Shown: positions 6,497 to 64,000 of the stretch, one piece after another | How the letters are laid out: each line of letters opens with the position of its first letter | Numbering within the stretch: the first letter of the stretch is position 1 | IMG/VR virus record: IMGVR_UViG_3300045988_125731 | Location: 23,536 to 87,535 of that record | Length of the DNA: 64,000 nucleotides | Strand: one strand, 5' to 3' | DNA from: a virus | Translations under genes and position numbers: made by a program | The notes under the pieces: model-generated | The model's database searches: none | What the model was told of the DNA's origin: nothing | What the model saw: the letters and a program-made list of their open reading frames with translations, nothing else

Positions 6497-6682
6497 ATGT
6501 ATAAAATTCTTTCTCGACCTAGCCAAAACAATTTTGTAACCGAGTTTATCTGCGATACAGAAGAAGATTTACCAATCATAGTGGCTTCTGAACCAGGAAT
6601 ACGCTGGGGTTCAACTTGTTATGTGGCAGCGTCAAAAACTTTATATGTTCTAGATTCTTCTTTGCAATGGGTAAAAGCCTAG
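6497..6682 (+). CDS. small conserved phage protein (61 aa), paralog of 25030..25206
   Basis: AAAGGAGAT RBS. Shared motif (F/Y)xCD..DL...GSxCYV....LYVL...L.W with the second copy. Confidence 0.5.
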   Translation: MYKILSRPSQNNFVTEFICDTEEDLPIIVASEPGIRWGSTCYVAASKTLYVLDSSLQWVKA

Positions 6683-6696
6683 CATAGGAGGTATTT

Positions 6697-7920: not shown

Positions 7921-8451
7921 ATGCCAGGAAAAACAAACGCAGTAAGTGGAGGAGGAGCCTCTACAATAAAAGTAGCAGGTTGTTGCCCTGTTTATTTAAC
8001 TTCTAATATTAATTGGACTGATGAAAAGAAAAACGCCATTATAACTAAGCTAAGAGCTCTATTGGCACAATATGAAGCCTTAGGAGTTTCAATATATCAA
8101 ATTACAGGAACAGGTAGTGTTGGTTCAGTTCAAACGAGTTATCAAAAGGTTACATCAAGTGAGTTATCTATGGATTATGATAGTAACTATCTTTATATAG
8201 GAGGTGCTCCAGTGAGTTCAAACGTCGGACAAATCATTGGTTATACTGCAGGTCTTGCAACGTATTATTTAGAAGCACCATCTAGTTTAGCAACACAATT
8301 GACTGCTATTTTAAAAACTGTATGGTCTGACCCTGAAACTTCGGGTGTTTATAGTTTATATGCGACTATTACTTGGGGAGCAGATTATACCTATGCAAAT
8401 GTAGGAAGCGGTTTATCAATTCCTTATATGAGAATGTGGATTAGTGATTAA
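7921..8451 (+). CDS. hypothetical structural protein
   Basis: TTAGGAGGTAAAAATT ATG. Confidence 0.45.
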   Translation: MPGKTNAVSGGGASTIKVAGCCPVYLTSNINWTDEKKNAIITKLRALLAQYEALGVSIYQITGTGSVGSVQTSYQKVTSSELSMDYDSNYLYIGGAPVSSNVGQIIGYTAGLATYYLEAPSSLATQLTAILKTVWSDPETSGVYSLYATITWGADYTYANVGSGLSIPYMRMWISD

Positions 8452-13552: not shown

Positions 13553-16500
13553 ATGGCACAATATAATTATTATGTTGGCGTTGGCGTTAAGATAGTAACA
13601 AGTCCTAAAGAGTTACGAGATTTGTTATCGAAATATAATGTAGCGGTTAATAATGTAAAAGTAAATTTTGATGTTGATTATATGGCTGCACAATTCAAAG
13701 CAGCGATAAAGAAAGCCCTAGGTAGTATTAGTGTAACTAATCTTGGAATAGATAATTCTACTAAGCCATTTAATATAAAAGATATTGAACCTAGTGCAAA
13801 ACTAGAAAGTTCAGTAAAAGCATATAATGAACTTGGTAAAGTTATTAAAGTAGTTAATACTTATGCTATTGGAACAAACAAAACATTAAAAGTTGTAACT
13901 GACGGCACGGGTAAATTAATATCTACTCAACAAACTTTAAAAACGCATAATACAGAAGCCAATATTGCGTTAAAAAATGTGCAAGAAAGATTTACATATT
14001 TTAAACAAAATGGTAAATTAACAGCACAACAAATTAACTACTTCACTCAAGAATTAAATAGAATCAGCAAATTAACAGGAAAAGAAAAGGTTGAAGCGAT
14101 TAAGGTATTCAATCGACAACTTTCTGACACAGGCAAAAGAGCGTTAAGTATTGGCGAACAGTTTAAAGAAGCGTTCAAGAAATTTATGGTCTGGTCTGCT
14201 GCTACAGTAACATTTGCAAGTTTAGTAAAAGCTATTAGGAGTATGATTCAAGAAATTAAAAAGCTTGATGATGCTATAGTTGAATTAAACAAAGTTGCTG
14301 ACTTAACTAACAAAGAATTAAGTGGCGTTATAGATAAAGCTAATGAACTAGCTGATAAAGTTTATAGCACCGCAGACCAAGCTTTGCTCGCCGTTGCTCA
14401 ATTTAAAAAAGCAGGTTATGAATTAAATCAATCTTTTGACTTAGCTGAAGTTGCTATAAGAATGACAAATGTTGCTGATGGTATTACAAATACTGAAGAA
14501 GCCGCTTCTTCTCTTATAGCAATATTAAAAGGCTTTGGACTAGAAGCGTCATCTGCTAATAGAGTTCTAGACCTTTTGAACCACACTTCAAATAACTTTG
14601 CGGTAGATACTGACGACTTAACCAACGGTATGACTAGAATTTCTGCTGTTATGGCTCAATCAGGCACTTCAATTGAAGAGACTATAGCGTTATTAACAGC
14701 GGTAACCGAAGTTATGCGTAATGCCGAAGTTGCGAGCCAAGGCTTGAATGCTATTTCACAAAGAATTAGAAAAGTTACAGAAGACGGCGAAGATAACACC
14801 AAGGTTATTGCTAAGATTCAGTCTGTATTTGATAAGTATGTTAAAGGTGTATCTGTATATGATGTTAATGGAGAATTACGTTCTACATATGACATTTTAG
14901 CAGACTTACAACCACGTTGGGCTGGATTAAGTTCAGAAGTAAAAGCATATGTTACAGAAGCAATTGCTGGTAATAGACAAAATAAAATTTTAGTTGCTTT
15001 AATGCAAAACTGGGAAACTGTTGATAAAGTAATAACAGAAAGTGCAAACGCTGCTGGTTCCGCAATTGAAGAAGAAGGTAAATTTGCTGACAGTGTACAA
15101 GGTAAATTAAATCAACTAAAGCAAGCGTGGAACGAACTTGCTCAAGCAACTTTAGATTCTAATCTTTTAAAATTCTTTATTGACGCAGGTAAGAGTGTTG
15201 TAAAATTAGCTACTTATCTTGGTGGACTACACAACGTTTTGTTTGCTATCTCGGGTTTAGTTGCAGGAATAAAACTTCCAGTAATAGTTAATTATGTTAT
15301 GGCTTTAACTAAAGGCTTTAGAGCTAATCACGTAGCTTCTGTAAGTAAAACAATTTCTACTAAAGCTGAAACGCAAGCCGTTAATGAAAACACTCAAGCA
15401 ATGCAATTGAATAATGCTGCTATGAATACAAATATTGCTTCTACCAATAAGCTTAGCAAAGCATTAAAAATAGCTTCTCTTGCAATCACAGGCATTACAA
15501 TAGTATGGAGTGCTGTTACAACTATTATTAATAAAATCAAGGCTGATATGGAAGAAGCGATTACCCTTGCTTCTGAAAATGCCACAAAACAAAAAGAGCG
15601 TTTTGATGAATTTTTGAAAGAGCGTGATGTATATCTTGAATACTCACAAACTATTAATAAAACCGCTAAAGAAATTACTGCATTAAATGCAGCCGAAAAG
15701 AACTTAGCAGAAACTTATGGCTTTGTATCTTCTCAAATGGACTTAGCAAATGATAGTCTAGATGCAAGAAAAGAAAAGTTAAAGGCTTTATTTAATGTTC
15801 AAAGAACAGAAGTTCAAAAGACTATTGACGCTTATCAAAAGCAGATTAATACTTTAGGCAAAAATACATCTGCTATTAGAAAAAGCGAACTATGGACTGG
15901 TACTCGAGCTATGTCTTTAGAAGAATATTTAAGTAAGCGAGAACGCACACTACTAAAGAATGTTCGTGCTAAGGGTGAACCTAAGTTTACTGTTGAAGAA
16001 ATTAGACAATTTAGAGAAGGTTGGACTAATACTTATAATCAGTTATTAAAAGAACTTCAAGGTAATGAAGCATATCAAGAAATTACTTCATTACAAAATC
16101 AAATTACAGCACTTCAAAAAGTTTACCAAGATGAGGAAGTATTTAATCTTAGTAATTTAATAGCACAATTTCAAGCACTTCCTACTTTTGCCTTAGAGCA
16201 AGGTACAGATATAGGAGATTTAGCAGATACACAAGTTAATTCTATTGCTACAATAGACGCTGTAATTGCCAAAGTTAAAGAACTTTTAAATTTGGAAAAC
16301 CAAACTCCTGAAGTTATACAGATGTTTAATAGTATTATTGAAAGATATACTACATTAAAAGAAACTATTGAGAAAACTGATTTTGCTTATAACACACTAG
16401 ATGAAAAGTTAAGTATTTTAAAGAAGATTCAAAGCGAACGAGAAGAAGAACTAAAGACAGAAGAAAAACTAAAAGCCGTAGAAGAAGCCAGACTTGCTTT

Positions 16501-17146
16501 AGCTAAGGCTCAAAATAAATATGTCTTAACTTATACTTCACAAGGTTGGCGATATGTAAAAGATGAATCTGCTATGCAATCAGCAACTGAACAACTTACC
16601 AAGGCTATTCAAGACGCTGGGTTAGATGATTTATCTCAAGCAATAAACGGCGTAGAGCAACTTCAAGAAATTTTGTCTACTATGACAGGAGATGAAAAGG
16701 ACGCTATGCTTGCTTATTATAGAGAAGCAGGTAAATTAGCCGATTGGCTTGAAATGGACTATGCTAGTAAACTTGCTGTTATAGATTCTATTGCAAGAAG
16801 TGCTGGATATGAAGGCTCTTATACTCAAGACTATTTTAACGAATGGGGAAAAACTGGAACTAGATTTGGCAATCTAACTCCTTATATTCCAAGTTCGCAT
16901 ACTGGTGGTGTAATTGGCGGAGTTCGCACCAATCCAAACGAACAAATTACTAAACTTCTTAAAGGAGAACTTGTATTAACTGAAGGACAACAAAAAGCCC
17001 TTGTAAATCAAATGGATAAACAAGGTGGTGGACTATCTATTAATATAGGTAATATTTCTACTAAGGAGCAAGATGTTGATGTTACTAATTTTATAGAACA
17101 AATTAAACAAATTGGTAGTATGCAACGAAGAACAAAGAGAATATAA
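13553..17146 (+). CDS. tail tape measure protein, copy 2 (paralog of copy 1)
   Basis: 1197 aa with its own AAAGGAGGTAG RBS. Same TP901 core motifs and same C-terminal block (GWRY...AGLDDLSQAI.G.E.L) as copy 1. Confidence 0.85.
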   Translation: MAQYNYYVGVGVKIVTSPKELRDLLSKYNVAVNNVKVNFDVDYMAAQFKAAIKKALGSISVTNLGIDNSTKPFNIKDIEPSAKLESSVKAYNELGKVIKVVNTYAIGTNKTLKVVTDGTGKLISTQQTLKTHNTEANIALKNVQERFTYFKQNGKLTAQQINYFTQELNRISKLTGKEKVEAIKVFNRQLSDTGKRALSIGEQFKEAFKKFMVWSAATVTFASLVKAIRSMIQEIKKLDDAIVELNKVADLTNKELSGVIDKANELADKVYSTADQALLAVAQFKKAGYELNQSFDLAEVAIRMTNVADGITNTEEAASSLIAILKGFGLEASSANRVLDLLNHTSNNFAVDTDDLTNGMTRISAVMAQSGTSIEETIALLTAVTEVMRNAEVASQGLNAISQRIRKVTEDGEDNTKVIAKIQSVFDKYVKGVSVYDVNGELRSTYDILADLQPRWAGLSSEVKAYVTEAIAGNRQNKILVALMQNWETVDKVITESANAAGSAIEEEGKFADSVQGKLNQLKQAWNELAQATLDSNLLKFFIDAGKSVVKLATYLGGLHNVLFAISGLVAGIKLPVIVNYVMALTKGFRANHVASVSKTISTKAETQAVNENTQAMQLNNAAMNTNIASTNKLSKALKIASLAITGITIVWSAVTTIINKIKADMEEAITLASENATKQKERFDEFLKERDVYLEYSQTINKTAKEITALNAAEKNLAETYGFVSSQMDLANDSLDARKEKLKALFNVQRTEVQKTIDAYQKQINTLGKNTSAIRKSELWTGTRAMSLEEYLSKRERTLLKNVRAKGEPKFTVEEIRQFREGWTNTYNQLLKELQGNEAYQEITSLQNQITALQKVYQDEEVFNLSNLIAQFQALPTFALEQGTDIGDLADTQVNSIATIDAVIAKVKELLNLENQTPEVIQMFNSIIERYTTLKETIEKTDFAYNTLDEKLSILKKIQSEREEELKTEEKLKAVEEARLALAKAQNKYVLTYTSQGWRYVKDESAMQSATEQLTKAIQDAGLDDLSQAINGVEQLQEILSTMTGDEKDAMLAYYREAGKLADWLEMDYASKLAVIDSIARSAGYEGSYTQDYFNEWGKTGTRFGNLTPYIPSSHTGGVIGGVRTNPNEQITKLLKGELVLTEGQQKALVNQMDKQGGGLSINIGNISTKEQDVDVTNFIEQIKQIGSMQRRTKRI

Positions 17147-17168
17147 TATAGAAAGGGTATAACATAAT

Positions 17169-33983: not shown

Positions 33984-34052
33984 ATTTAGTTCTCCTTTCG
34001 TTTACTTTTTTTCATTTGCTTCTATATAATTATATTCCGTTTAAATTTCTTT

Positions 34053-43398: not shown

Positions 43399-43539
43399 AC
43401 AAACGATATTTTTAAAATTTTCTTTTCATAATATTATATTCTTTTTATAACAATAAAATCAACTAAAATGATTTAAAAGTTAAAAATATTCTTCATATTA
43501 CAATTATTATTGTAACTGAGAGTAATAAATTAACCAAAT

Positions 43540-46936: not shown

Positions 46937-47152
46937 AAGATTTCATAACTGCCACGAACTAACTTAGTTCTATGGCAATTAAATATGCAGACTTTCTACT
47001 TAGTGTCCATTCTTGTCTAATTTTATGTACTAATTCGCCTTAAGGACACTTAGCACAACCTAGATTTCACTAGGGTTAGTTATTACTCTCCTTTATAATT
47101 TCTTTGTTTTTCATTTTTATTCCTCCATCAAATTATATTCTTTTTATTTTTT

Positions 47153-48780: not shown

Positions 48781-49090
48781 CGGCTATTTGAAAATCTTTA
48801 TCATCATCATTATCAAACTCCAATTTAAAGTAATAACCGTGAATAATGTCATTAAAGTCGGTGTCGGTATAATCAACATCAACATCTAAATGATTTATGA
48901 TTTCTTTGAGAAGAGTTAAGGCTTGAATGACATCTTTAAACACCCCAATTCGATATGAATAAAAAGGTATCATATCTTTCTTTGTAGGATTTGTGCTTCT
49001 TCTACGTTGTGCCAACTCGTATTCATCTTCATTTTTGATAGCCTCTATGTAGTCAATTAAAAAGTCTAATTTATTCATCTTCCACTCCAA
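48701..49090 (-). CDS. acidic hypothetical protein
   Basis: 129-aa ORF, Asp/Glu/Tyr-rich. Confidence 0.35.
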   Translation of the reverse strand: MEWKMNKLDFLIDYIEAIKNEDEYELAQRRRSTNPTKKDMIPFYSYRIGVFKDVIQALTLLKEIINHLDVDVDYTDTDFNDIIHGYYFKLEFDNDDDKDFQIADELYEWYENETYNDEYWREEYERNER

Positions 49091-49730
49091 AATAATATTT
49101 TTTGATACGGTCTTCGCCGATAGTTTCGATAGCCTTTTTTGCTATCTCTTCACTTGTAAAATAGATATTAAATGGGGTATAACACCACTTATATGTAGAA
49201 AAAACGGCTATAATTTTATCTGATTGAAACATACCTAAATAGTATTTTGTCTGATTAACATCATTCCAATCAATTTCTTTTTCGTTATTTTCGTATGCGA
49301 ACCTTTCTAACTCGTGAATAACTTTGAGTTTTTCGACCATAAACTTGGCTTGCTCTGCGGTTTGAAAACAATTGCCTATAGCCATTAATCTTTTATCATT
49401 TTCATACTCCCCATAGTCAAAATAATCTATATTAACATCGTGGCGAATAAAATAATAAGGTTTTCCTTTTTTAGGCTCCCACCATTTTCTTTTTTCCTCA
49501 AATATTTCCCAATCATCGGCTAAAATATTTTCTACATTTGTTAAAGATAAATCATCAATTTTAGTGTCAATTTGTTCTTTATTATAAAAGTTTGGGCTAC
49601 AACACAATAAATTCCCGTTATTGTCAATGATAAGCCATACATCTTTCCACCCTTTTCTTCTAACTTTCTTCCCTTTTGTCATTTCTTCAATTGCTTGTTC
49701 AAAATTCATTAGTTTCCTCCTCAACTTCAA
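49071..49730 (-). CDS. DUF2829-like N-terminal domain protein (paralog 1 of 3)
   Basis: N-terminal FEQAIEEMTKGKKVRRKGW. C-terminal GNCFQTAEQAKFMVEKLKVIHEL. Confidence 0.45.
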   Translation of the reverse strand: MKLRRKLMNFEQAIEEMTKGKKVRRKGWKDVWLIIDNNGNLLCCSPNFYNKEQIDTKIDDLSLTNVENILADDWEIFEEKRKWWEPKKGKPYYFIRHDVNIDYFDYGEYENDKRLMAIGNCFQTAEQAKFMVEKLKVIHELERFAYENNEKEIDWNDVNQTKYYLGMFQSDKIIAVFSTYKWCYTPFNIYFTSEEIAKKAIETIGEDRIKKYYFGVEDE

Positions 49731-50328
49731 AGTAATACTTTATAAGACGTTCTTCTCCAATGGCTTCGACAGATTTCTCTGCAATGGACTCACTTGTAAA
49801 ATAAACGTTCAATGGGATTTCTTTCATAGATATAACATAGTTAACTAATACTTGATTTGCAGAATAACTATAATACAAGAAGAACTTTTTCTGACCGTCA
49901 TCATTCCAATTTATTTCTTCTTCGTTGTTTTCAACTGCAAATGTTTTAAGTTCGTGAATAACTCTAAGTTTTTCAGCCATAAACTCGGCTTGCTCTTCGG
50001 TTTGGAAACAGTTACCAATTGATTGGAAACGCTTATCAGTATCGTCGTCATCATAAGAATAACAACCAATACGACCTGTGTGTACAATAAGATAATAATT
50101 TTCTTTTATCTTAGGTTCCCACATTTTCTTCTTCCCTTCATTAATAACTTCCCAATCATCAGCAAGTGTATTAGTAATAGTTTCTTGATTAAAATCATTT
50201 TCAATAATTTTACCTGTTTTTAATTTAATTTTTACTTTTCCATCTTCAATAAACCAATAGCCTCCCCAACCTGGTCTTCTGATTTTTTTACCATTTAACA
50301 TTTCTTGATAAGCTTGTTCAAAATTCAT
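49699..50328 (-). CDS. DUF2829-like N-terminal domain protein (paralog 2 of 3)
   Basis: MNFEQAYQEMLNGKKIRRPGW. GNCFQTEEQAEFMAEKLRVIHEL. Confidence 0.45.
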   Translation of the reverse strand: MNFEQAYQEMLNGKKIRRPGWGGYWFIEDGKVKIKLKTGKIIENDFNQETITNTLADDWEVINEGKKKMWEPKIKENYYLIVHTGRIGCYSYDDDDTDKRFQSIGNCFQTEEQAEFMAEKLRVIHELKTFAVENNEEEINWNDDGQKKFFLYYSYSANQVLVNYVISMKEIPLNVYFTSESIAEKSVEAIGEERLIKYYFEVEEETNEF

Positions 50329-50358
50329 TTTATTTTCCTCCTAAATATTATATTCTGT

Positions 50359-55373: not shown

Positions 55374-55405
55374 AATTAATTTCCTTCCTCTATATAAATT
55401 ATATT

Positions 55406-56332
55406 CTAATTTAATTTTAAATTTAAATTAAAGTTATATTTATTAATTCCTTCACTTAATACTTCCCCTCTAATATGAGTATAAATATTAGCAGTAGTAG
55501 ATAGTTGTGCGTGTCCTAATTGGAGTTGCACTTCTTTTAAGCTTGCTCCTTTTTCTAGTTGAATAGATGCAAAACTGTGTCTAAAACTATGTGGGTGAAT
55601 ATTTTTATCAATTCCCACACGACGTGCAATAACCTTACTACTATTTGTTATAGCAACTCTATTCATTGGTTTACCACTATTAGAGATAAACAAGTTATTA
55701 TATTGACAATTAGGGAACTTTTTATTTCTAAACTTAACAATATATTCTTTAATAATTTGTGCTGTATAACTAGGAATATATTTCTTTTGCATTTTTTGTC
55801 CTTTACAACGTACTAAGATATATGGACTTTCAACATCTAAAAATAAATTATCTAATTCCATATTGATTAATTCACTTAATCTTACTCCCATTGTAAGAAA
55901 AACTGTAAACACAGCTTTATCACGTAAGTTTTTACAACCCAATATAAATCTTTGTGCTTCTTCTTCTGTAAGATAAGTTGTTTCGCGATAATCTTTATCT
56001 TTAAAAGAGTGTATTCTTTTCCAAGGATTTTTATCTATATATTCATATTCTTCTAAAAAGTGATAAAAAGATTTTAAACACATAATTTTTTGATTTTTAC
56101 TAGATACTTTATATTGCTTTTCTTGTAAGTAGTCTAAGTAAGATAAGATATTTTCGTTGTTTAATTCTATAATTTGTTTATTTGTTGTAATATCTAACAC
56201 CTCACAAAACTTATTTAGTATTTGTGTGTAGTCAGATATTGTTTTTTCTGTTCTTTGTTTTTCAATTTTACAATATCTATAAAAAGTATCTAACAAAGTA
56301 AAATCTTCTAGTTTAAAATTCTTATCAAGCAT
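55406..56332 (-). CDS. tyrosine site-specific recombinase (XerC/XerD-like integrase/resolvase)
   Basis: HPHSFRHSFA and LGHAQLSTTANIYTHI match the R-H-R-Y catalytic motifs. 308 aa. Confidence 0.75.
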   Translation of the reverse strand: MLDKNFKLEDFTLLDTFYRYCKIEKQRTEKTISDYTQILNKFCEVLDITTNKQIIELNNENILSYLDYLQEKQYKVSSKNQKIMCLKSFYHFLEEYEYIDKNPWKRIHSFKDKDYRETTYLTEEEAQRFILGCKNLRDKAVFTVFLTMGVRLSELINMELDNLFLDVESPYILVRCKGQKMQKKYIPSYTAQIIKEYIVKFRNKKFPNCQYNNLFISNSGKPMNRVAITNSSKVIARRVGIDKNIHPHSFRHSFASIQLEKGASLKEVQLQLGHAQLSTTANIYTHIRGEVLSEGINKYNFNLNLKLN

Positions 56333-57211: not shown

Positions 57212-57766
57212 TTAGTATATCCATTTTGGATTAACTATTTTACCACTAATATAATCTTCCCATATTTGTTTGTATTGTTGTAATTCTTTATTAAGTACGA
57301 GATTTAACATTTGCTTAGACAATTGATAATGATATTTTTCTTTAATTTCTCGAACAGGTATGTTTTTACTAAATCTATCAATAAACATAGGTGTTGCAAT
57401 AGTTAAAATATAATCAACAAACATATCTTTTTCAGAGTTTCTCATAGGTTGTTCCCATTCTGTATCAAAAGTATCATCAAAATTATCAACAATACAGACT
57501 CTATCTTTCCCATTTCGTTTAATTCTACGTACATCACGATAGAGACCATACATTGCTTTGGTTGAAACAGTCCAAATAAAAGTAGTTATTTTGGTAAGGT
57601 TCTGTGTATATTTATCTAAGTTATCCCACACTTTCATATATGCGATGTTAATCAAATCACTATATTCATAGCCATAAGGCTCAAAACTAGGTATGAAAGG
57701 TTGAACGGCTTTAACTACTACCCCTTTATACTCTTCTAGTAATTGTTCTTTTAATTCTCTTTCCAT
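57212..57766 (-). CDS. putative second sigma-70-family-like protein
   Basis: Region-2-like LINIAYMKVWDNLDKY...TTFIWTVSTKAMYGLYRDVRR. Helical C-terminus. Weaker match than 43540..44238. Confidence 0.35.
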   Translation of the reverse strand: MERELKEQLLEEYKGVVVKAVQPFIPSFEPYGYEYSDLINIAYMKVWDNLDKYTQNLTKITTFIWTVSTKAMYGLYRDVRRIKRNGKDRVCIVDNFDDTFDTEWEQPMRNSEKDMFVDYILTIATPMFIDRFSKNIPVREIKEKYHYQLSKQMLNLVLNKELQQYKQIWEDYISGKIVNPKWIY

Positions 57767-57900
57767 TTGTTCCTCCTGAGGCGATTTTAAGGGGTATTTT
57801 TAAAAGGTTTACCCCTACCCTTTATAGTTTATCACTTTTTATTCAAAAGTTTAGAAATACCCCCTAAATAAGGTTTAAAATAGATTTTAAATACAATTTT
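57767..57900 (-). promoter_or_regulatory. conserved 5' leader element copy 2 (CTTATTTAGGGGGTATTTCT box + AGGGGTA...TACCCCT hairpin)
   Basis: Same box and hairpin directly upstream of the RBS as copy 1 at 27367..27533. Confidence 0.4.
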
Positions 57901-58010
57901 ATGACCAATATTTTAAACCTTATTTAATTTAATCACTTACTCTAACATATAATTGCTTACTTTAGTGTCTTTTTTATGTGATAAATTTAGAGTATCATTA
58001 ATTTCTTTTT

Positions 58011-58062
58011 TACACTATAACATAAAATTAATTAGTTTTAATTTAAAACTTTTTCTAAACAA
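58011..58062 (-). promoter_or_regulatory. degenerate copy of the repeated promoter element
   Basis: TACACTATAACATAAAATTAATTAGTTTTAATTTAAAACTTTTTCTAAAC vs consensus TACACTAATATTATATCA...TTTTAAAAACTTTTTGCTTTTTATGTA. Confidence 0.3.
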
Positions 58063-58069
58063 TTTCTTC

Positions 58070-58543
58070 CTAGTAGTTGATAGTCAAAATATTCCTATCT
58101 ATTTTAGCATTATAATTACTTAAAATATAATCGAGGAAACTTTCTTCGTCAAGCAAATATGCGATAGGAATTGTAATATCTTTAAAAGTATCAAGTGCAT
58201 TGTTAATTCGTGCTTTGAAAGAATAATCAATATCCCCATTATCAGTAATATAAATACTAAATTTTAATATCTCAGAAGAGTAAGGCTTACAACATCGCAA
58301 CCAAATCTCTACTGACATTTCTCTTTTATCTTCTTTAAGAAAGTTATATATTCCACTATCAAAATCCATTCTTTGTCCACTGTATTCAAAATGGTGTATA
58401 AAACTTTTACAAACTTTCTTCTCTAATTCATTTGCTACTTTCCAACATTTATGTGGATATGCTGTTCCTAAACATTCTTTGACAGCGTTATGGAAGATAT
58501 TAAAACCTTCCACAACATTTTTATAATTAATTCTTCTTTCCAT
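58070..58543 (-). CDS. hypothetical protein
   Basis: 157-aa ORF. Confidence 0.4.
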   Translation of the reverse strand: MERRINYKNVVEGFNIFHNAVKECLGTAYPHKCWKVANELEKKVCKSFIHHFEYSGQRMDFDSGIYNFLKEDKREMSVEIWLRCCKPYSSEILKFSIYITDNGDIDYSFKARINNALDTFKDITIPIAYLLDEESFLDYILSNYNAKIDRNILTINY

Positions 58544-58554
58544 TTTAATTTACC

Positions 58555-58896
58555 TCACTTAATTTCTCTTATCTCTTCAAATCCTATATAAAATAATTCA
58601 CTAATAAAATCCATTAACTCTTGACCTGTTAATTCGTGTAGTTTAATTTCAGTATCTTCACTAAAACCACAACAGTCCACCCACGCGAGAGCAGCAGGTT
58701 CGAGAGCAGCAGTACGCCACTCTCTAACAGTCTTTGTTAACCCCATACAAAATCCTTTTTCAGGGTCAACAAAAGGACTAATTTGATAATCTTTTATGCA
58801 TTTATAAACTCTATTTTCATTAACTATTCTTTCTTTAATTTCTTTCATTTTATTATACATCTTTTCTTTGTATTTATTAAACTTTTGATTATTCAT
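58555..58896 (-). CDS. hypothetical protein
   Basis: 113-aa ORF. Confidence 0.4.
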   Translation of the reverse strand: MNNQKFNKYKEKMYNKMKEIKERIVNENRVYKCIKDYQISPFVDPEKGFCMGLTKTVREWRTAALEPAALAWVDCCGFSEDTEIKLHELTGQELMDFISELFYIGFEEIREIK

Positions 58897-58898
58897 AA

Positions 58899-59477
58899 TT
58901 ATCTAACTCCAAAATAATATTTTTTCAAACGTTCTTCGCCAATAGCTTTGATAGATTTATCTGCAATTTCCTTACTTGTAAAATAAACAGCAAGTGGGAT
59001 ATGTTGACATTTGGAATAAGAATCACAACTTACGATAGACATATCTGTGTAATCAAAATATAAATAGTATTTTCTTTGTTCCGAATTATTCCAATCTATT
59101 TCTTCTTCATTATTTTCAAACGCAAACTTTTCTAACTCGTGAATAACTCTAAGTTTTTCAGTCATAAACTCTGCTTGTTTTTCGGTTTGAAAACAATTAC
59201 CTAGAGATAGAAAACGCTTGTCGATATCGTCGTCGTCATAAGGATTACAACTAATATGACCTGCACCGCTAATACAATAATAATTTCCTCTTATCTCAGG
59301 TTCCCACCATTTTTTCTTTTTTTTCTTTTCTTCCACAATTTCCCAGTCTTCAGCAGTAAGACTTTCTTTCCCTAAGACTGTAATGTTATTGATATTAATC
59401 CAACTTCCTTCTTTCCAACTTTTTCTTCTAATTTTCTTTCCATTAAGGAATTCTTCGTAAATATCTTTAAGTTTCAT
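58899..59477 (-). CDS. DUF2829-like N-terminal domain protein (paralog 3 of 3)
   Basis: IYEEFLNGKKIRRKSW. GNCFQTEKQAEFMTEKLRVIHEL. Confidence 0.45.
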   Translation of the reverse strand: MKLKDIYEEFLNGKKIRRKSWKEGSWININNITVLGKESLTAEDWEIVEEKKKKKKWWEPEIRGNYYCISGAGHISCNPYDDDDIDKRFLSLGNCFQTEKQAEFMTEKLRVIHELEKFAFENNEEEIDWNNSEQRKYYLYFDYTDMSIVSCDSYSKCQHIPLAVYFTSKEIADKSIKAIGEERLKKYYFGVR

Positions 59478-59719
59478 ATTCTTCCTCCTGATTTAACTTG
59501 ACTTAATCTTCTTAATGCTTTATAAACAATTATTCCATTATTTTCCTTTTTATAAATATCAAACTTTTCAACATCTGTCCAAGGTCTGTATAAATGTTGC
59601 TCCCAATGTGAGTAATAATATACAAATCCTTCTTTTTCTAACTTTTCTTCATTTTCTTTTGAATACTCTTCGAAATCTTCTAAAGTAATAACTCCTAAAT
59701 TAGTATCTAATGTTCTCAT
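59474..59719 (-). CDS. hypothetical protein (start refined to ATG after AGGAGG)
   Basis: TTAGGAGGAATT ATG at 59719. Confidence 0.4.
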   Translation of the reverse strand: MRTLDTNLGVITLEDFEEYSKENEEKLEKEGFVYYYSHWEQHLYRPWTDVEKFDIYKKENNGIIVYKALRRLSQVKSGGRI

Positions 59720-59732
59720 AATTCCTCCTAAT

Positions 59733-59990
59733 CTAATCACATTCACAGCCATCATCTAACCAATAATGCATACCGCACTTTTTACAATAACGCCAACCGC
59801 TATCAACAGGTTTGCCAAATAATTCCTCGTAAGTATAGTTTGTTCCAAACTCTTGATTTGCTTTATCAGTTAATTTTTTAGCTTTTGCGATGTACTCTTT
59901 CTTTGTTGTACAATCTAAATCAACATCATACAACCAAGTTGTGTTGACTATATCTAATTCCTTATTGCTTTCTAATCTGTATACTACCAT
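59733..59990 (-). CDS. small protein with C-terminal Cys cluster (CKKCGMHYWLDDGCECD)
   Basis: TAGGAGGTATTTGAA ATG. First gene after promoter copy A. Confidence 0.45.
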   Translation of the reverse strand: MVVYRLESNKELDIVNTTWLYDVDLDCTTKKEYIAKAKKLTDKANQEFGTNYTYEELFGKPVDSGWRYCKKCGMHYWLDDGCECD

Positions 59991-60019
59991 TTCAAATACC
60001 TCCTATGTAGTAATTATCT

Positions 60020-60080
60020 TTACACTAATATTATATCACACTTTTTGCATTTTTAAAAACTTTTTGCTTTTTATGTATAA
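60020..60080 (-). promoter_or_regulatory. repeated promoter element copy A (extended -10 TGaTATAAT + conserved upstream box)
   Basis: Minus-strand reading: TACATAAAAAGCAAAAAGTTTTTAAAA...GTGTGATATAATATTAGTGTA. Confidence 0.5.
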
Positions 60081-60131
60081 CCATATTTACATATATACAT
60101 AAAACCATAAATACATAAATATGTATATTTA

Positions 60132-60428
60132 TTAATAAATAGTTAAAACATAAAATCCATTTTTACGCTCTACATAGAATTGACTTTGAGGGTCATTGAA
60201 AGCTACCCAACGCATATACTCCCATATACTATTAATTTGTAATACAGCCATTACTTTTATATCGTTGTTGTCAATTAATAAATCACTACCACAAGTATTA
60301 ACAAACGCTTTAAAGCAAGTATCTAAATCTTTACTAATAAAAATTGTGTTATCTTCGTTTGTAAAATAATCTTTCTTATCTATTGGTGTTTCAAAAATTA
60401 ATGTTGTATTGTTTTGTTTTTTATTCAT
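60132..60428 (-). CDS. hypothetical protein
   Basis: 98-aa ORF. Confidence 0.4.
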   Translation of the reverse strand: MNKKQNNTTLIFETPIDKKDYFTNEDNTIFISKDLDTCFKAFVNTCGSDLLIDNNDIKVMAVLQINSIWEYMRWVAFNDPQSQFYVERKNGFYVLTIY

Positions 60429-60477
60429 AATTTATTCCTTTCTTTTAAGTCCGTGGACTGTTTTTCATTACACTAAT

Positions 60478-60530
60478 ATTATACCACAAAAATTAATTTT
60501 TAAAAACTTTTTGCTTTTTATGTATGTATG
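60478..60530 (-). promoter_or_regulatory. repeated promoter element copy B
   Basis: TACACTAATATTATACCACA...TTTTAAAAACTTTTTGCTTTTTATGTA. Confidence 0.45.
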
Positions 60531-60606
60531 GTTGTAAATAAAACCATATTTATGTATATATGTATCTTCCTTATTATATATAATATATATAAGCAAAAAT
60601 AAATAA

Positions 60607-60640
60607 AAAATAAAAGACCACTATTTGATAGTGGTCAATA
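60607..60640 (-). terminator. rho-independent terminator (GACCACTAT...ATAGTGGTC + U-run on minus strand)
   Basis: 9-bp stem. TTTTATTTTTT on the minus strand after it. Confidence 0.55.
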
Positions 60641-61010
60641 AAAGAAAGGTTTTATATTTCATAGGAAAGTTATATATCTTTCCATTAACTGAAATGCTTT
60701 TTCCAAACAAATCAAAGTATGCAATATCTATTTTGTTTGTTTGTTCTACTGTTAAAAGGTCTAAAAACTCTTTAACATTATTTAAGACTTTATCATTACC
60801 GATGTTTAATTGAGTAAAAATAAAATCTCTTTCATTTGCTAAAAGGTTGTCTAACTCTTGTTCTGAAATCCCATTAGGATATTTTTGATTTAAAAGTTTT
60901 TCAAACTCTTCTACTTTGTTTTCTTCTATAATAATACATTGAGTGTCAATTGCATTAACGCTCCAAGGCTCAAAATCACTAAAATTAATATTTGCTTTAA
61001 TAGTTATCAT
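60621..61010 (-). CDS. hypothetical protein (N-terminus homologous to 61007..61246)
   Basis: FEPWSVNAIDTQCIIIEENKVEEFEKLLNQKYPNGISEQELDNLL. Confidence 0.4.
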   Translation of the reverse strand: MITIKANINFSDFEPWSVNAIDTQCIIIEENKVEEFEKLLNQKYPNGISEQELDNLLANERDFIFTQLNIGNDKVLNNVKEFLDLLTVEQTNKIDIAYFDLFGKSISVNGKIYNFPMKYKTFLLLTTIK

Positions 61011-61246
61011 ATTGTATCTTCTTCCTCATTATCTTCTTCTGTTATTCCTAAACATTCATAAATCCATTTTTCTTCAAATCTTAATAAATCATTCAATCCT
61101 GTTTCTGTTATTCCTTCGGGATAGCATTCTTCAATAAGGACATTAAACTCTTTTTCTTTTCCTTTTTTGATAATTAGGTCTTTAGTCTCGATTGCACCCG
61201 CCCACGGTTCAAACTCTTCTAGTGTAATTTCTCTAAATACTTTCAT
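61007..61246 (-). CDS. hypothetical protein (paralog of N-terminal part of 60621..61010)
   Basis: FEPWAGAIETKDLIIKKGKEKEFNVLIEECYPEGITETGLNDLL. Confidence 0.4.
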   Translation of the reverse strand: MKVFREITLEEFEPWAGAIETKDLIIKKGKEKEFNVLIEECYPEGITETGLNDLLRFEEKWIYECLGITEEDNEEEDTI

Positions 61247-61254
61247 ATTTTCAC

Positions 61255-61554
61255 CTATTTTTGACTTTCTTCTTTTAACATTGTTATTGCTTTTTCAATT
61301 CCAATTTTTTTTGCATAAGATAACAATTCTTCAAATTGGTTAAAAGTTCCGCGAAAACGATTTTCGCCATAACAACTATTAGAAGTTTCAGTTGTTTCAA
61401 TTTCTATCATAAGTTTGTCTTGCTCGTTATAATACATTCTTGTTATAATTGAGCCATTATAACTTTGAGTTGATGTTGTAATGTATTTACTACCCCTTCT
61501 TGTTGCTAATGTGCGAGATAAATCCGCATTAATTGTTGCATAAAAACTTGCCAT
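61255..61554 (-). CDS. hypothetical protein
   Basis: AAAAGGAGAAAG RBS, downstream of promoter copy C. Confidence 0.4.
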   Translation of the reverse strand: MASFYATINADLSRTLATRRGSKYITTSTQSYNGSIITRMYYNEQDKLMIEIETTETSNSCYGENRFRGTFNQFEELLSYAKKIGIEKAITMLKEESQK

Positions 61555-61595
61555 ATTTTTCTTTCTCCTTTTAAAGTGCAGTGCACTATTTATTT

Positions 61596-61660
61596 ACACT
61601 AATATTATATCATACTTTTAAAGGTTTTTAAAACTTTTTGCTTTTTATGTAAATGTTTAT
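61596..61660 (-). promoter_or_regulatory. repeated promoter element copy C
   Basis: Minus strand: ...AGTATGATATAATATTAGTGTAAATAAATAGTGCACTGCACTTTAAAAGGAGAAAG ATG. Extended -10 plus 5' hairpin plus RBS. Confidence 0.5.
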
Positions 61661-61703
61661 TTATGTATAAAATTAATACTTTGAAAGTAAAAGTTTTGTT
61701 ATA

Positions 61704-61733
61704 AATAAAAAAAAGAAGGATTAAATCCTTCTA
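61704..61733 (-). terminator. rho-independent terminator (GAAGGATT/AATCCTTC + U8) overlapping the stop codon of 61731..62504
   Basis: Perfect 8-bp stem. TTTTTTTT on the minus strand. Confidence 0.6.
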
Positions 61734-62504
61734 GTTTTTTTCTATTACACCAATTTTTTTAATCATATTTTTTAATTCTTCTTCTTTTTCACTATCTGTA
61801 ACTTGTTTTTTCATATTACAAGGCATTAACATTGCTATTGCATTTTCATTCTTTGTAAATACAACGGGTTTTACTCTACCAAATGTATAATCTTCTATAT
61901 CATAAGGTGTATAAGGTTTATATGCTTCTGCTTGACCTATTGTAATTTTATCACGGTTGCTTAAACCTAGAATTGTTAATACGTTTTCTAATTCTTCAAT
62001 AGAAACATATGTTAATTCTTTAATATTTGCTACATCTCTGTCTCCTGTAAAATTAAATGCTACAATTTGTTGATTATTGCTTTTTGCAAGTGCTATTGTG
62101 TGATAAATAGATTCTACTAATACATCATATGTACAACCTAATTCGGAATTTCGTTTTTCTTTAAAAATAGAATCACAAGGCGGATATTTTTCTTTGTCGT
62201 CTCTCTCTTCTAACCCTTGAATGATTTCATTTGCTGCAAAAAAGAACGCTGTAAAGCGATTAGTAAAAACTTGCATTCTTTTATTATCTAACATTTGATA
62301 ATCGCATTTAGATAGAATTGAATATGTTGTTTTTGAATTCTTCTTTAAATATCTTTTAATAGCTGTTAAACGCTTTTTGGAAGTATTTAAATTAAGTGCT
62401 TCTAAAGATAGATTATAATCTATTTCTTGTAAATACATTTTTAATCCCTCATAGTTTTCTGTGTTTAGATAATCTCTAATTTTGTTTAATTCTTGTTTAT
62501 TCAT
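61731..62504 (-). CDS. hypothetical protein
   Basis: 257-aa ORF bounded by promoter copy D and its own terminator. Confidence 0.4.
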   Translation of the reverse strand: MNKQELNKIRDYLNTENYEGLKMYLQEIDYNLSLEALNLNTSKKRLTAIKRYLKKNSKTTYSILSKCDYQMLDNKRMQVFTNRFTAFFFAANEIIQGLEERDDKEKYPPCDSIFKEKRNSELGCTYDVLVESIYHTIALAKSNNQQIVAFNFTGDRDVANIKELTYVSIEELENVLTILGLSNRDKITIGQAEAYKPYTPYDIEDYTFGRVKPVVFTKNENAIAMLMPCNMKKQVTDSEKEEELKNMIKKIGVIEKN

Positions 62505-62542
62505 TTTTTTCTTCCTTTCTTTAAAGTCCTTAGGACTATTTT

Positions 62543-62610
62543 TATACTAATATTATATCATATTTTTAAAGGTTTTTAAAACTTTTTGCTTTTTATGTAA
62601 ATATTTATTT
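62543..62610 (-). promoter_or_regulatory. repeated promoter element copy D
   Basis: TATACTAATATTATATCATATTTTTAAAGGTTTTTAAAACTTTTTGCTTTTTATGTAAATATTTATTTATGTA. Near-identical to copy C, including the downstream TACTTTGAAAGT extension. Confidence 0.5.
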
Positions 62611-62653
62611 ATGTACAAATATAATACTTTGAAAGTCAAAGTATTGCTACAAG

Positions 62654-62683
62654 TCAAAAAAAGTACTTAAAAACTAAGTACTT
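62654..62683 (-). terminator. rho-independent terminator (palindrome AAGTACTT...AAGTACTT + U7), stop codon inside the stem
   Basis: A-run and T-run flank it, so it may act in both directions. Confidence 0.55.
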
Positions 62684-62978
62684 TTAAATTTGTTATATTT
62701 AAATATTCTTTAATTATCTTTTTACAATTATTAATTATATCTTGTGTTGTTGCTTGATGGCTTATTTCAAACTTAAAGCCATAATCTTGTAGTGCATCAA
62801 AACAAGATATGATTAATCTACTACTGTTTTTTGGATTAACACTCACATATATATCATACTCTACATCATTGTTATATAATGTTGCACTACAAGTTCTTAC
62901 AAGTGGTAAGATTTTATATGCGTTAACATCAATTGAGTGATAATTTATAATGTTATTACAAAGCATAATTTTCACCAC
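62667..62978 (-). CDS. hypothetical protein
   Basis: 103-aa ORF. Confidence 0.4.
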   Translation of the reverse strand: MVKIMLCNNIINYHSIDVNAYKILPLVRTCSATLYNNDVEYDIYVSVNPKNSSRLIISCFDALQDYGFKFEISHQATTQDIINNCKKIIKEYLNITNLKVLSF

Positions 62979-63456
62979 TTAATATTAATTCTAAAACTTT
63001 ATTAAAATCTAATTCTTTTAAAGGCTTTCTATATTGGTTGTCGTGAATATAGAATATATCGCCATTGTCCCACATCAAATCATACATTGCATTATCAATA
63101 TTTAAATTGTAAGTATGAATAATGTTTTCTATTTCTTCTTTTACAGCGTTAAAATCTGCAAAATCTTCTTTGTTAATCATTAAAGTTGCAGTTCTTAAAT
63201 AAGCACGAATTGTTAATACATCATTAGTTTTAATAACTTCTATTCTATTAGAATTATTAAAATTAAGTATTAGTTGGTATGCTCCTGTTATTTGAACACT
63301 GTTCACATTTTCTTCTAGTTCATACACACTATCTAATGCAGTTTCTATTTCCTTTGTGCTGTCCCCCTTTCCTTCTAGTTTCATTTCTTCTACTTCTAAA
63401 ATCTTTTTAACCTCTTCTAAATGATTTAGAATTTTTTCTTGTAAGTCTTTTTTCAT
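62956..63456 (-). CDS. hypothetical acidic protein
   Basis: 166-aa ORF. Confidence 0.4.
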   Translation of the reverse strand: MKKDLQEKILNHLEEVKKILEVEEMKLEGKGDSTKEIETALDSVYELEENVNSVQITGAYQLILNFNNSNRIEVIKTNDVLTIRAYLRTATLMINKEDFADFNAVKEEIENIIHTYNLNIDNAMYDLMWDNGDIFYIHDNQYRKPLKELDFNKVLELILSGENYAL

Positions 63457-63492
63457 TTTTTCTTTCTTCCTTTCTTTTTTTTGGTTTTCAAC

Positions 63493-63512
63493 CTACTAAT
63501 ATTATAGCACAA
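63493..63512 (-). promoter_or_regulatory. partial copy E of the repeated promoter core (CTACTAATATTATAGCACA)
   Basis: Matches the TACACTAATATTATATCACA core. A nearby TGTCAAG-N8-CTTGACA palindrome at 63630-63651 is a candidate operator. Confidence 0.3.
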
Positions 63513-63687
63513 TTAAAATATTAATTCAAGGCATATGCTTGTATTTTTAAACATTTTTGTTATATAATTTTTATATAATGCTATATCAAATTTGATATAC
63601 CTATTCCCTGTCAAGCAAAAATACTTGACACTTATACTTTTAAACTAAAAGAATAATAATTTTAATTTAAAAGTTTTATCAAAGTAA

Positions 63688-63722
63688 AAAAAAGAAGGAT
63701 TTAAAACCCTTCTTTTACAATT
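63688..63722 (-). terminator. rho-independent terminator (AGAAGG...CCTTCT + U-run)
   Basis: Stem with flanking A-run and T-run, at the stop codon of 63701..63973. Confidence 0.45.
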
Positions 63723-63973
63723 GCACCGCTAAGAAGTTTATATAAGTGTGTTTTTGTTTTAGTTTGTATTCCGTTTTCGTAAAGTGTAATGTTAATTTGA
63801 AATTCTATTGTCTTAAATACATCACATTTTAAAATATCATCGATTAAATCTTGTTCAAATGATTTTAACTTAAACAAAAACCAATCAATACTACTATCTT
63901 TAAGAGTCATAAAATATTTTTTTTGTTCGTTTTTAATTATGTAAACAGTCGCTTTATTCATATTTTGTTTCAT
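63701..63973 (-). CDS. hypothetical protein
   Basis: 90-aa ORF. Confidence 0.4.
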   Translation of the reverse strand: MKQNMNKATVYIIKNEQKKYFMTLKDSSIDWFLFKLKSFEQDLIDDILKCDVFKTIEFQINITLYENGIQTKTKTHLYKLLSGAIVKEGF

Positions 63974-64000
63974 TTCTTTTATTCCTTTCTTTTTAAGTGC

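Follow-up and report, generated by a model that had tools for sequence, protein, structure and literature searches.

An array of gene cassettes bounded by promoter and terminator repeats in an uncultured human-gut phage, a proposed analogue of promoter-early stem-loops

Promoter-early stem-loops (PeSLs) were described from T4-type myoviruses such as RB49, phi1, PST, and nt-1 (PMC2839356, PMC4122927). A PeSL is composed of a terminator, an A/T-rich tract, a sigma-70 promoter, and a Shine-Dalgarno sequence; PeSLs flank orphan genes in hyperplastic regions and mediate modular shuffling (PMC2839356, PMC4122927). In the literature, PeSL-mediated shuffling is documented in T4-like myoviruses of Gram-negative hosts, and literature searches found nothing comparable for Gram-positive or siphovirus-like phages. 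Here, an array of repeat-bounded gene cassettes is reported from the IMG/VR virus record IMGVR_UViG_3300045988_125731. The stretch analyzed, 64,000 nucleotides (nt) at positions 23,536 to 87,535 of the record, is designated as the window, and the phage is siphovirus-like, uncultured, and from human gut metagenomes. The repeats are probably early promoters read by host sigma-A polymerase, which double as homology for cassette shuffling in an early accessory-gene region. The same device, a regulatory repeat that would express orphan genes and supply homology for swapping them, is seen here in an unrelated uncultured gut lineage with Gram-positive-type promoters. This supports promoter-terminator repeats as a general, convergent route for large phages to renew early accessory genes.

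Like PeSLs, the repeats are composites of a stem-loop terminator, an A/T-rich region, a housekeeping-sigma-type promoter, a Shine-Dalgarno sequence, and a start codon, and many of them are placed among orphan genes. As with PeSLs, recombination between copies is associated with insertions, deletions, replacements, and chimeric elements, and the crossover points vary. Comparison with the functional description of PeSLs found, at the sequence level, a predicted promoter of sigma consensus, a predicted stem-loop terminator, the association with orphan genes, and repeat-bounded insertions and deletions with chimeras. The array is nevertheless an analogue and not a member of the PeSL group. It belongs to an unrelated lineage, a siphovirus-like phage that has two genes for tape-measure proteins, a polymerase of the DnaE type, and a presumed host among the Firmicutes, and not to a T4-type myovirus, and there is no sequence similarity between the two kinds of repeat. 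In addition, it has a TRTGn extended -10 element, two promoter classes in a fixed order, and an extra mini-hairpin of the 5' untranslated region (5'UTR) fused to the ribosome-binding site. It forms one contiguous array beside an origin-like region instead of several hyperplastic regions.

Three other systems are comparable in part. In SPO1, a phage of Firmicutes, about 20-26 small early genes are arranged in many short operons and read by host sigma-A polymerase, after which a phage sigma takes over (PMC6873191). The array is similar to this host-takeover module in its layout of small, presumably early genes in short operons, with promoters and ribosome-binding sites of the kind found at highly expressed genes. 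The likeness is restricted to layout: the SPO1 module lies in a terminal repeat and is associated with host shutoff, and no PHROG or Pfam link to the SPO1 proteins gp37-gp60 was found among the cassette proteins. To our knowledge, recombination between promoter repeats is not a described feature of SPO1. The morons of lambdoid phages, a concept of Juhala and Hendrix, are promoter-gene-terminator units that are inserted singly between late genes and expressed in the prophage state. The units of the array are similarly autonomous, carry accessory genes, and have a GC content below that of their surroundings, and at least two of the cassette genes, coding for 85 and 79 amino acids (aa), are also present in unrelated phages. 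Unlike morons, they are arranged head to tail with one shared promoter family in a presumed early region. Integrons are also one-directional arrays of small, variable, mostly orphan cassettes beside a tyrosine recombinase gene. In contrast to integron cassettes, those of the array have their own promoters and terminators, attC-like sites are absent, and the junction positions vary.

The window was scanned together with the adjoining locus L001, which is identical to it across 10.3 kb and adds 9,973 nt beyond the window end, 74 kb altogether (the window position is 73974 - p for L001 position p). The array starts at L001 7399, just past a 2-kb non-coding region where the GC skew changes sign, extends through about 2.6 kb beyond the window end, and closes after ten units at a sigma-factor-like open reading frame (ORF) at 57212-57766. 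It occupies the promoter-proximal end of the leftward arm of the genome. Each unit is ordered as a terminator, a conserved upstream box, a sigma-A-type promoter, an optional 5'UTR mini-hairpin, a ribosome-binding site, and one to five mostly orphan ORFs. Nowhere else in the region is the GC content as low: it is about 0.20-0.27 over most of the array versus about 0.29-0.34 in most of the remaining genome.

The initial annotation, made from the window sequence, described five to six copies of an element of about 60 bp. The element is real, and four copies are full. The 22-mer AAAACTTTTTGCTTTTTATGTA occurs exactly four times in the window (60056, 60503, 61630, and 62578, all on the plus strand) against 0.02 expected, and none of 100 shuffles reached four. 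A repeat search recovered the same four copies as a 58-nt family. They are designated as B to E in the order of their positions; copies D (61593-61715) and E (62541-62663) are 90% identical across 123 nt. The motif ACTAATATTATA adds a fifth site at 63495. This site, annotated as a partial copy at 63493, shares only the -10 and start region with the others; it has a canonical -35 TTGAAT, a 17-nt spacer, and a different upstream module, and represents a different promoter class. The copy proposed at 58011 is degenerate. It reads TATGTTATAGT, the distance from AAAAAGTTTT to the -10 is 5 nt longer, and in L019, a relative with 95% identity, unrelated sequence stands in place of its upstream half.

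The annotation of each copy as an extended -10 promoter on the minus strand agrees with the sequence match of five copies in the window, where TRTGnTATAAT is found on the minus strand at 60030-60040, 60478-60488, 61604-61614, 62552-62562, and 63501-63511. The motif occurs seven times in 74 kb, versus 0.88 expected per strand, and all seven sites are on the coding strand and inside the array, within 4.4 kb. Each precedes a cassette, 33-72 nt 5' of the start codon. At six of them, a purine is found 7 nt downstream, followed by a Shine-Dalgarno sequence; at the seventh (63501-63511, the putative promoter of the 166-aa cassette), the purine is at 6 nt.

The putative promoters can be divided into two classes. 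Class 1 is found in the first five units, those nearest the 2-kb non-coding region, including the site at 63501-63529, and consists of CTTGNNN, a 17-nt spacer, and TRTGnTATAAT. The palindrome TATATCAAATTTGATATA lies upstream of three class-1 promoters and a variant of it upstream of a fourth; two of those three also have TGTCAAG-N8-CTTGACA. The upstream module found at 63582-63630 recurs ahead of three class-1 promoters located beyond the window end. The combination of the palindrome and TTGACA was considered as a second promoter in the class-1 intergenic regions and rejected on its spacing of 23 nt. Class 2 comprises the four full copies, with the box TACATAAAAAGCAAAAAGTTTT at -54 to -33, a weak -35 TTTAAA, TRTGnTATAAT, and a purine 7 nt past the -10. 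The words TACATA, TATGTA, and AACCAT are iterated farther upstream. Among copies B to E, the box and the positions -17 to +4 are nearly invariant, while the spacer at -29 to -18 is only about 58% identical. In the window phage, AAGCA is present at -46 to -42 in most promoters of both classes. The TACATA/TATGTA/AACCATA words are also found upstream of class-2 promoters in both clades of relatives described below, and in L001 they form a dense 180-nt cluster (8018-8200) with a spacing of about 16 nt, inside an 818-nt intergenic region. This cluster could be a protein-binding array.

The core promoter includes a -35 element (TTTAAA, or CTTGAAT in class 1), a spacer of 16-17 nt, and TRTGnTATAAT, and by its sequence it is of the Gram-positive housekeeping sigma-A type. 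TRTG at -16 belongs to the extended -10 consensus of Bacillus subtilis and Gram-positive sigma-A promoters (PMC6570832, citing Voskuil and Chambliss). It stands at -17 to -14, directly 5' of TATAAT, in all five window copies and in 27 of 28 class-2 promoters from five genomes. The dedicated sigma site that had been suggested for the repeats does not agree with this core, nor with the presence of a different motif before the replication genes.

That third promoter-like motif, aaa.aGAATATAAT, has neither a TG extension nor a -35 element. It is located on the minus strand at 55398-55406, 50347-50355, 47132-47140, 43433-43441, and 34029-34037, and on the plus strand at 17139-17147. Of the nine GAATATAAT sites in the window, six are placed between genes and in the right orientation; at most of these six, the motif lies 8-20 nt before a Shine-Dalgarno sequence, and the genes concerned belong to the replication module except for one structural gene. 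The motif may serve as a middle or late promoter read by the phage sigma or a YonO-like polymerase, a role for which it is a better candidate than the array promoters. Because it precedes the replication-module genes, the array promoters constitute a distinct class.

Folding gave a stem-loop with a trailing U-run for all four terminators named in the initial annotation, with energies of -9.6 to -12 kcal/mol and z-scores of -2.8 to -5.6. A consensus scan found seven terminators in 10 kb against 1.4 expected, among them three of the four named; the fourth, at 62652-62685, was missed because it has too few G-C pairs. Three further terminators are located beyond the window end. Several terminators are homologous to one another and overlap a stop codon. 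The description that nearly every gene or gene pair ends in its own terminator is accurate for the four named, but after the 98-aa gene, in the intergenic region that leads to promoter B (60030-60077), neither scan nor folding found a terminator.

Both 5' hairpins of the initial annotation (61575-61587 and 62525-62537) were recovered, and two more were found, at 60448-60459 and, with 4 bp, at 63483-63493. In total, eight of the ten units have a 4-5-bp hairpin joined to UUAAAAGAAAGGAA. Seven of these are of the form AGTSY-loop-RSACT, and the eighth is GGTT-GAA-AACC (63483-63493). The promoter-B operon and the sigma leader are without a hairpin, and across the promoter set the leaders lacking it use AGGAGG. 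The seven GC-containing hairpins are confined to the array, each directly 5' of a ribosome-binding site. Among 14 distinct examples from several contigs, 98.6% of the alignment cells are paired, versus 18-54% in slid controls, and compensatory double changes are observed in two of the five pairs (C-G to G-C and C-G to U-A).

A second clade of relatives was recovered with the helicase as an anchor in IMG/VR and with homologues of the 257-aa cassette protein. It is represented by IMG/VR 3300001525_000318 (L003/L006), L029, L032, and L033. The genes flanking the array are syntenic in this clade, with identities of 85% for the YonO-like polymerase, 71% for the tyrosine recombinase, 47% for the helicase, and 27% for the sigma-like protein. 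Between the window and L003, whose flanking genes are 47-85% identical, only three cassette gene families (257-aa, 79/129-aa, and 85-aa) are shared, and their order is different. The layout is conserved. In the three second-clade arrays with their beginning on the contig, a class-1 promoter comes first and six to seven class-2 promoters come after it, and the contig of L032, which begins inside the array, has five class-2 promoters. The 28 class-2 promoters of five genomes have the consensus TaTA.aCATAAAAatAAAttatTTT..AAAatAaaAATttTaTGaTATAATATTt.TgTAaa. CATAAAA at -51 to -45, TTT at the 5' end of the -35 hexamer, TRTGnTATAAT, ATT, and TRTAA around +1 are retained, and C at -51 is the most informative position. 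The regulatory sequence thus outlives the genes it would serve, which speaks for function rather than recent duplication.

Comparison of closer relatives revealed that recombination has taken place at the repeats. The 257-aa cassette is missing from L043 and L044, which share 91-97% identity with the window phage. L043 matches the window up to copy E with its positions 1-987 and from copy D onward with its positions 824-2101, and the overlap is a 164-nt repeat. The single intergenic region remaining in L043 and L044 is a chimera, E-type on the terminator side and D-type on the hairpin and gene side. L043 switches from E to D within the box, and L044 does so at a point closer to the terminator. 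The length of the missing unit, 948 nt, equals the spacing of the D and E repeats. In L026 and L027 (95% identical), the 90-aa cassette is missing, and a chimeric class-1 intergenic region takes its place. Their crossover is within a 3-nt interval directly 5' of the perfect palindrome TATATC-AAATTT-GATATA, and the intergenic region of L027 is a b-a-b mosaic, resembling gene conversion.

In the second clade, a 51/53-aa gene follows a class-2 promoter in L029 and the class-1 first promoter in L033, with homology from 16 nt 5' of the -10. Several other homology blocks in the second clade stop 17-41 nt past a -10. In L043, a 250-aa gene is inserted directly after the hairpin and ribosome-binding site of promoter C. 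The first promoter of L020 has a C-like upstream half and a B-like downstream half; this chimera was not counted as a loss of the 98-aa cassette, as the contig ends there. The 969-nt contig L025, which contains the 257-aa cassette alone, was considered as a mini-circle and rejected: its ends are the 30-nt flanks of a 39-nt sequence shared by D and E, and it is therefore a repeat-bounded unitig of k=31. Assemblies of these phages are interrupted by the repeats; the contigs L019 and L020, for example, stop within the array or at its edge. The initial annotation regarded a recombination site as a refutation of the promoter. The comparative data indicate that the repeats are both, and this opposition was too narrow.

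The following mechanism is proposed. Host sigma-A polymerase would recognize each unit directly, presumably right after DNA entry, and the terminators would insulate the units, leading to separate expression of each small gene or group of genes. Later genes would then be transcribed with the help of the sigma-like protein, encoded at the array end, and of the YonO-like polymerase, encoded on the other arm. The distinct motif aaa.aGAATATAAT, which has neither TG nor a -35, fits such a hand-over. As the same module of about 60-240 nt bounds every unit, homologous recombination between copies, by the system of the phage or of the host, deletes, inserts, and permutes units; this is shown by the comparison of relatives, and the array thus behaves as a hyperplastic region. 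The earlier proposal of early, host-takeover, or moron-like modules is retained at the level of sequence: the units look self-contained, nearly all of their ORFs are orphans, the position is promoter-proximal, and the layout is that of an early region.

Several observations weigh against this interpretation. The class-2 -35 is weak (TTTAAA, 4/6). When the region -59 to -38 was compared with the UP-element consensus nnAAAWWTWTTTTnnAAAAnnn, it scored 6-7 of 15, while random 22-mers of this genome have a mean of 6.3 and a 95th percentile of 9; the class-2 box was therefore rejected as a canonical UP element, its score being no better than random DNA of this genome. The same region has a near-invariant C at -51 and, in the window phage, GC at -44/-43, and thus resembles a specific protein site more than generic A/T richness. 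An extra factor may be needed. The A-tracts of the box could still bind the C-terminal domain of the RNA polymerase alpha subunit through an unusual contact. The 5'UTR hairpins have little thermodynamic stability (-2 to -5 kcal/mol, z = -1.3 to +0.3). As their folding is no better than that of shuffled sequence, a role as a strong RNA stabilizer was rejected, and covariation alone argues for the structure; the hairpin could be an mRNA 5' stabilizer, a target of a regulator, or extra recombination homology. Gene flux is also seen within the promoter-B operon (in L020 and others), with no promoter copy nearby, so the repeats are not its sole route, and each presence/absence polymorphism may be either a deletion or an insertion. 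Finally, promoter activity and its timing are read from the consensus match and from position.

The weak -35 and the failure of the box as a canonical UP element are also what would be expected if class 2 were delayed-early, dependent on an activator or controlled by a repressor, with the box TACATAAAAAGCAAAAAG (C at -51) and the TACATA/AACCATA repeats as protein sites and with class 1 alone firing on naked host polymerase. This possibility is unlikely, though it deserves some weight. C at -51 has the highest information content in 28 copies from five genomes, the TACATA/TATGTA/AACCAT words are iterated upstream in both clades and clustered over 180 nt at L001 8018-8200, and class-1 units are next to the non-coding region with class 2 following, both in three arrays and in the window phage. 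However, no DNA-binding domain match was found among the cassette proteins. The genes driven by class-1 promoters differ in the second clade (182, 90, and 53 aa), and there is therefore no conserved activator encoded behind class 1. The near-perfect TRTGnTATAAT can function with a poor -35, as extended -10 promoters in general can, and the early promoters of T4 have phage-specific conservation that extends upstream of -35 and require no activator. It is very unlikely that the repeats are promoters of a phage machine rather than of host sigma-A. The genome does encode both a sigma-like protein (Sigma70_r2, 27.3 bits; ORF 57212-57766) and a PF05183/YonO-like polymerase (42 bits), and the initial annotation suggested a dedicated sigma site. 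Against this, the -10 matches the housekeeping consensus exactly, it has the TRTG extension of Gram-positive promoters, and its distance to TTGNNN or TTTAAA is canonical. The sigma gene is at the distal end of the array, and thus its product depends on the array promoters or on transcripts reading through from them. In SPbeta, YonO is the polymerase of the late operon (PMC5467207), and the GAATATAAT motif before the replication genes is the better candidate for either protein.

The syntenic presence of a tyrosine recombinase gene (55406-56332) with the array in every relative, together with the L026/L027 crossover within 3 nt 5' of the palindrome, could suggest that the palindromes or hairpins are site-specific sites of this enzyme in an integron-like platform. 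This is extremely unlikely, because the absence of the 257-aa cassette involves two crossover points within the 164-nt shared region, which indicates homologous and not site-specific exchange. The b-a-b mosaic of L027, the class-2 intergenic regions without a palindrome, and the promoters carried by the cassettes themselves also argue against it. The probability that the repeats have no promoter role, as neutral leftovers of a recent duplication or as a replication or packaging signal, is close to negligible. The 90% identity of D and E over 123 nt looks recent, and a region that is rich in iterons and resembles an origin is found about 2.6 kb past the window end. On the other hand, the architecture has persisted in a clade with protein identities of only 27-85% and with cassette genes that are for the most part unrelated, the conservation is concentrated in the box, the -10, and +1 and not in the spacer, and every copy is strand-specific, intergenic, and at a fixed distance from a ribosome-binding site and start codon.

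A more far-reaching proposal builds on host sigma-A promoters that double as recombination homology. The box (C at -51, and AAGCA at -46 to -42, which is common to most class-1 promoters here) and the covarying hairpin fused to the ribosome-binding site would be read by dedicated factors of the phage or the host, providing a two-step early programme with post-transcriptional control, and the module would be a portable plug with which gut Firmicute phages exchange accessory and anti-defence genes across lineages, possibly via circles. This proposal is speculative and rather improbable. In practical terms, the consensus of 28 promoters is a candidate strong-promoter and 5'UTR part for Firmicutes, and the cassettes provide a shortlist of roughly 20 predicted early proteins for host-takeover or anti-defence screening. 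The features of the array inside the window are listed in Table 1.

Table 1. Features of the cassette array in the window, from the promoter-proximal end to the sigma-like ORF.
Feature	Position	Strand	Description
90-aa ORF, single-gene cassette	63701-63973	-	ORF list; promoter just past the window end (L001 9860-9956)
Terminator of the 90-aa cassette, stem-loop and U-run	63690-63716	-	Consensus scan; -11.5 kcal/mol, z = -2.8
Class-1 upstream module	63582-63630	.	Inverted repeat TGTCAAG-N8-CTTGACA (63609-63630) and perfect palindrome TATATCAAATTTGATATA (63582-63599)
Putative class-1 promoter	63501-63529	-	-35 TTGAAT, 17-nt spacer, TGTGCTATAAT
4-bp 5'UTR mini-hairpin GGTT-GAA-AACC	63483-63493	-	Directly 5' of the ribosome-binding site AAAGAAAGGAAG
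Two-gene cassette, 166-aa and 99/103-aa ORFs	62667-63456	-	Neither with a family match above threshold
Low-GC terminator, core stem GUACUUA/UAAGUAC and U7	62652-62685	-	-9.6 kcal/mol, z = -3.1
Putative class-2 promoter, copy E	62552-62644	-	Inverted repeat ATACTTTGA..TCAAAGTAT at 62624-62644; extended -10 TATGATATAAT at 62552-62562
Copy E box TACATAAAAAGCAAAAAGTTTTAAAA	62574-62599	-	Covers -35 TTTAAA
5'UTR hairpin AGTCC-TAA-GGACT	62525-62537	-	5' of the ribosome-binding site
257-aa ORF, single-gene cassette	61731-62504	-	Sliding-clamp-like predicted fold
Terminator of the 257-aa cassette	61714-61732	-	Overlaps the stop codon; -10.8 kcal/mol, z = -3.8
Putative class-2 promoter, copy D	61604-61694	-	Box 61626-61651; extended -10 61604-61614
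5'UTR hairpin AGTGC-ACT-GCACT	61575-61587	-	5' of the ribosome-binding site
Three-gene cassette, 99, 79, and 129 aa	60621-61554	-	79-aa and 129-aa proteins are paralogues, phrog_5149
Terminator	60606-60636	-	-12 kcal/mol, z = -5.6
Putative class-2 promoter, copy C	60478-60580	-	Box 60499-60524, 1 nt closer to the -10 than in the other copies; extended -10 TGTGGTATAAT at 60478-60488; TACATA/AACCAT repeats upstream
5'UTR hairpin AGTC-CACG-GACT	60448-60459	-	5' of the ribosome-binding site
98-aa ORF	60132-60428	-	No terminator after it
Putative class-2 promoter, copy B	60030-60131	-	Box 60052-60077; extended -10 TGTGATATAAT at 60030-60040; TACATA/TATGTA/AACCAT upstream; no hairpin; strong ribosome-binding site AGGAGG
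Five-gene operon, 85, 81/93, 192, 113, and 157 aa	58070-59990	-	Behind promoter B; gene content varies among relatives
Degenerate promoter-like site	58014-58041	-	TTAAAA, 16-nt spacer, TATGTTATAGT; then a leader of about 240 nt to the sigma-like ORF
Sigma-factor-like ORF, 184 aa, closes the array	57212-57766	-	Sigma70_r2 27.3 bits (cut-off 24); phrog_351; syntenic in all relatives

None of the cassette proteins matched a Pfam family at the curated cut-off, and three of about 20 matched PHROG families, all of unknown function. The 257-aa protein is predicted to have a sliding-clamp-like fold (DnaN/PCNA-like). Its AlphaFold2 model has a mean predicted local distance difference test score of 71, and all top Foldseek matches in PDB are DnaN or PCNA (best E-value 2e-4), with TM-scores of only 0.26-0.40. 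A sequence search of PDB gave no match, and the clamp resemblance comes from the fold search alone. The protein is kept in both clades, yet it is dispensable in L043 and L044. The 85-aa protein (59733-59990) shows a weak zinc-ribbon match, and the N-terminus of the 192-aa protein (58899-59477) weakly resembles Tad2 (DUF2829; E = 0.013). A stretch of about 300 nt of the 192-aa gene has two copies, 68-75% identical, on the replication arm at about 49724-50018 and 49071-49376. Homologues of the 79-aa family are present in phages of Listeria, Lactococcus, Eggerthella, and Polaribacter. A homologue of the 85-aa protein, 69% identical, is found in an unrelated temperate phage (L037-L041; for example, L037 8001-8258), beside a cro-like helix-turn-helix gene and opposite an integrase and repressor pair. 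Its presence there is evidence, from sequence comparison, of a horizontal spread of cassette genes.

The tyrosine recombinase gene, about 1.7 kb downstream of the last cassette ORF, belongs to phrog_1 (E = 7e-48). The gene for a YonO-like single-chain RNA polymerase (PF05183, 42 bits) is found at L001 1978-3633 (minus strand in L001; equivalent to 70341-71996) and L001 488-1504. Its product is 929 aa in L033. Here, a 551-aa ORF and a 338-aa ORF are 474 nt apart, and the gene may be split or interrupted.

The structural genes are on the plus strand at 1-25 kb of the window, including two adjacent tape-measure-like ORFs, and the replication genes (a DnaE-type polymerase, a DnaB-like helicase, and exonucleases) are on the minus strand at 25.7-64 kb. 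The GC content of the phage is about 30%, and no tRNA genes were found in the window. The 90-aa protein is also encoded on human-gut metagenome assemblies of 87,505 and 87,577 nt. These open at different points, which suggests a genome of about 87.5 kb with a circular or permuted map. The DnaE-type polymerase is 43% identical to that of an unannotated human-gut phage and 37-42% identical to those of Clostridioides difficile and Bacillus siphophages of 130-170 kb; such siphophages are the nearest phages at 37-43% identity. The host is probably a Firmicute, judging from the strong Shine-Dalgarno sites, the TRTGn promoters, and the GC content. A search of genome contigs with the YonO-like protein gave a sole match, 30% identical, in a metagenome-assembled genome of Muribaculaceae, which does not identify the host.

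A nucleotide search of the array against 50,697 phage records gave no match, nor did an exact scan of IMG/VR with the 22-mer, and the sigma-like protein as an anchor in IMG/VR recovered no relatives. A degenerate promoter pattern revealed one IMG/VR contig with an array (five matches) and 13 others with one match each, which were taken as chance.

The 2-kb non-coding region (L001 5408-7398) lies between the divergent arms, and the cumulative GC skew has its minimum there. Iterons resembling AAAGTTCTTAAGTTAG are found at 6267-6420, six TTTCTTTTTTG units phased by 11 nt at 6928-6997, a purine tract at 6680-6740, and an inverted repeat rich in GC at about 5920-6000. The region is likely to be a replication origin or control region. 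At the other end of the array, the sigma leader (window 57767-58010, about 240 nt) can form long-range, mutually exclusive pairings, AAGGTTTAAAAT/ATTTTAAACCTT and GGGGGTATTT/AAATACCCC versus AGGGGTA/TACCCCT. It is kept in L019 and may be a regulatory leader. Rfam covariance models gave no match at E <= 1 to the sigma leader or the 5'UTR hairpins in 20 kb covering the array.

Two observations concern the structural arm. Two neighboring ORFs of roughly 1,190 aa, at 9978-13538 and 13553-17146 of the window, have matches to tape-measure families (phrog_4211, with E-values of 3e-65 and 1e-73), a duplication that is unusual for a tail-length ruler. Within the 251-aa ORF at 5716-6471, AGTAACWTTACT is repeated five times with a 72-nt period (5871-6159), which points to a 24-aa tandem repeat in a structural protein.

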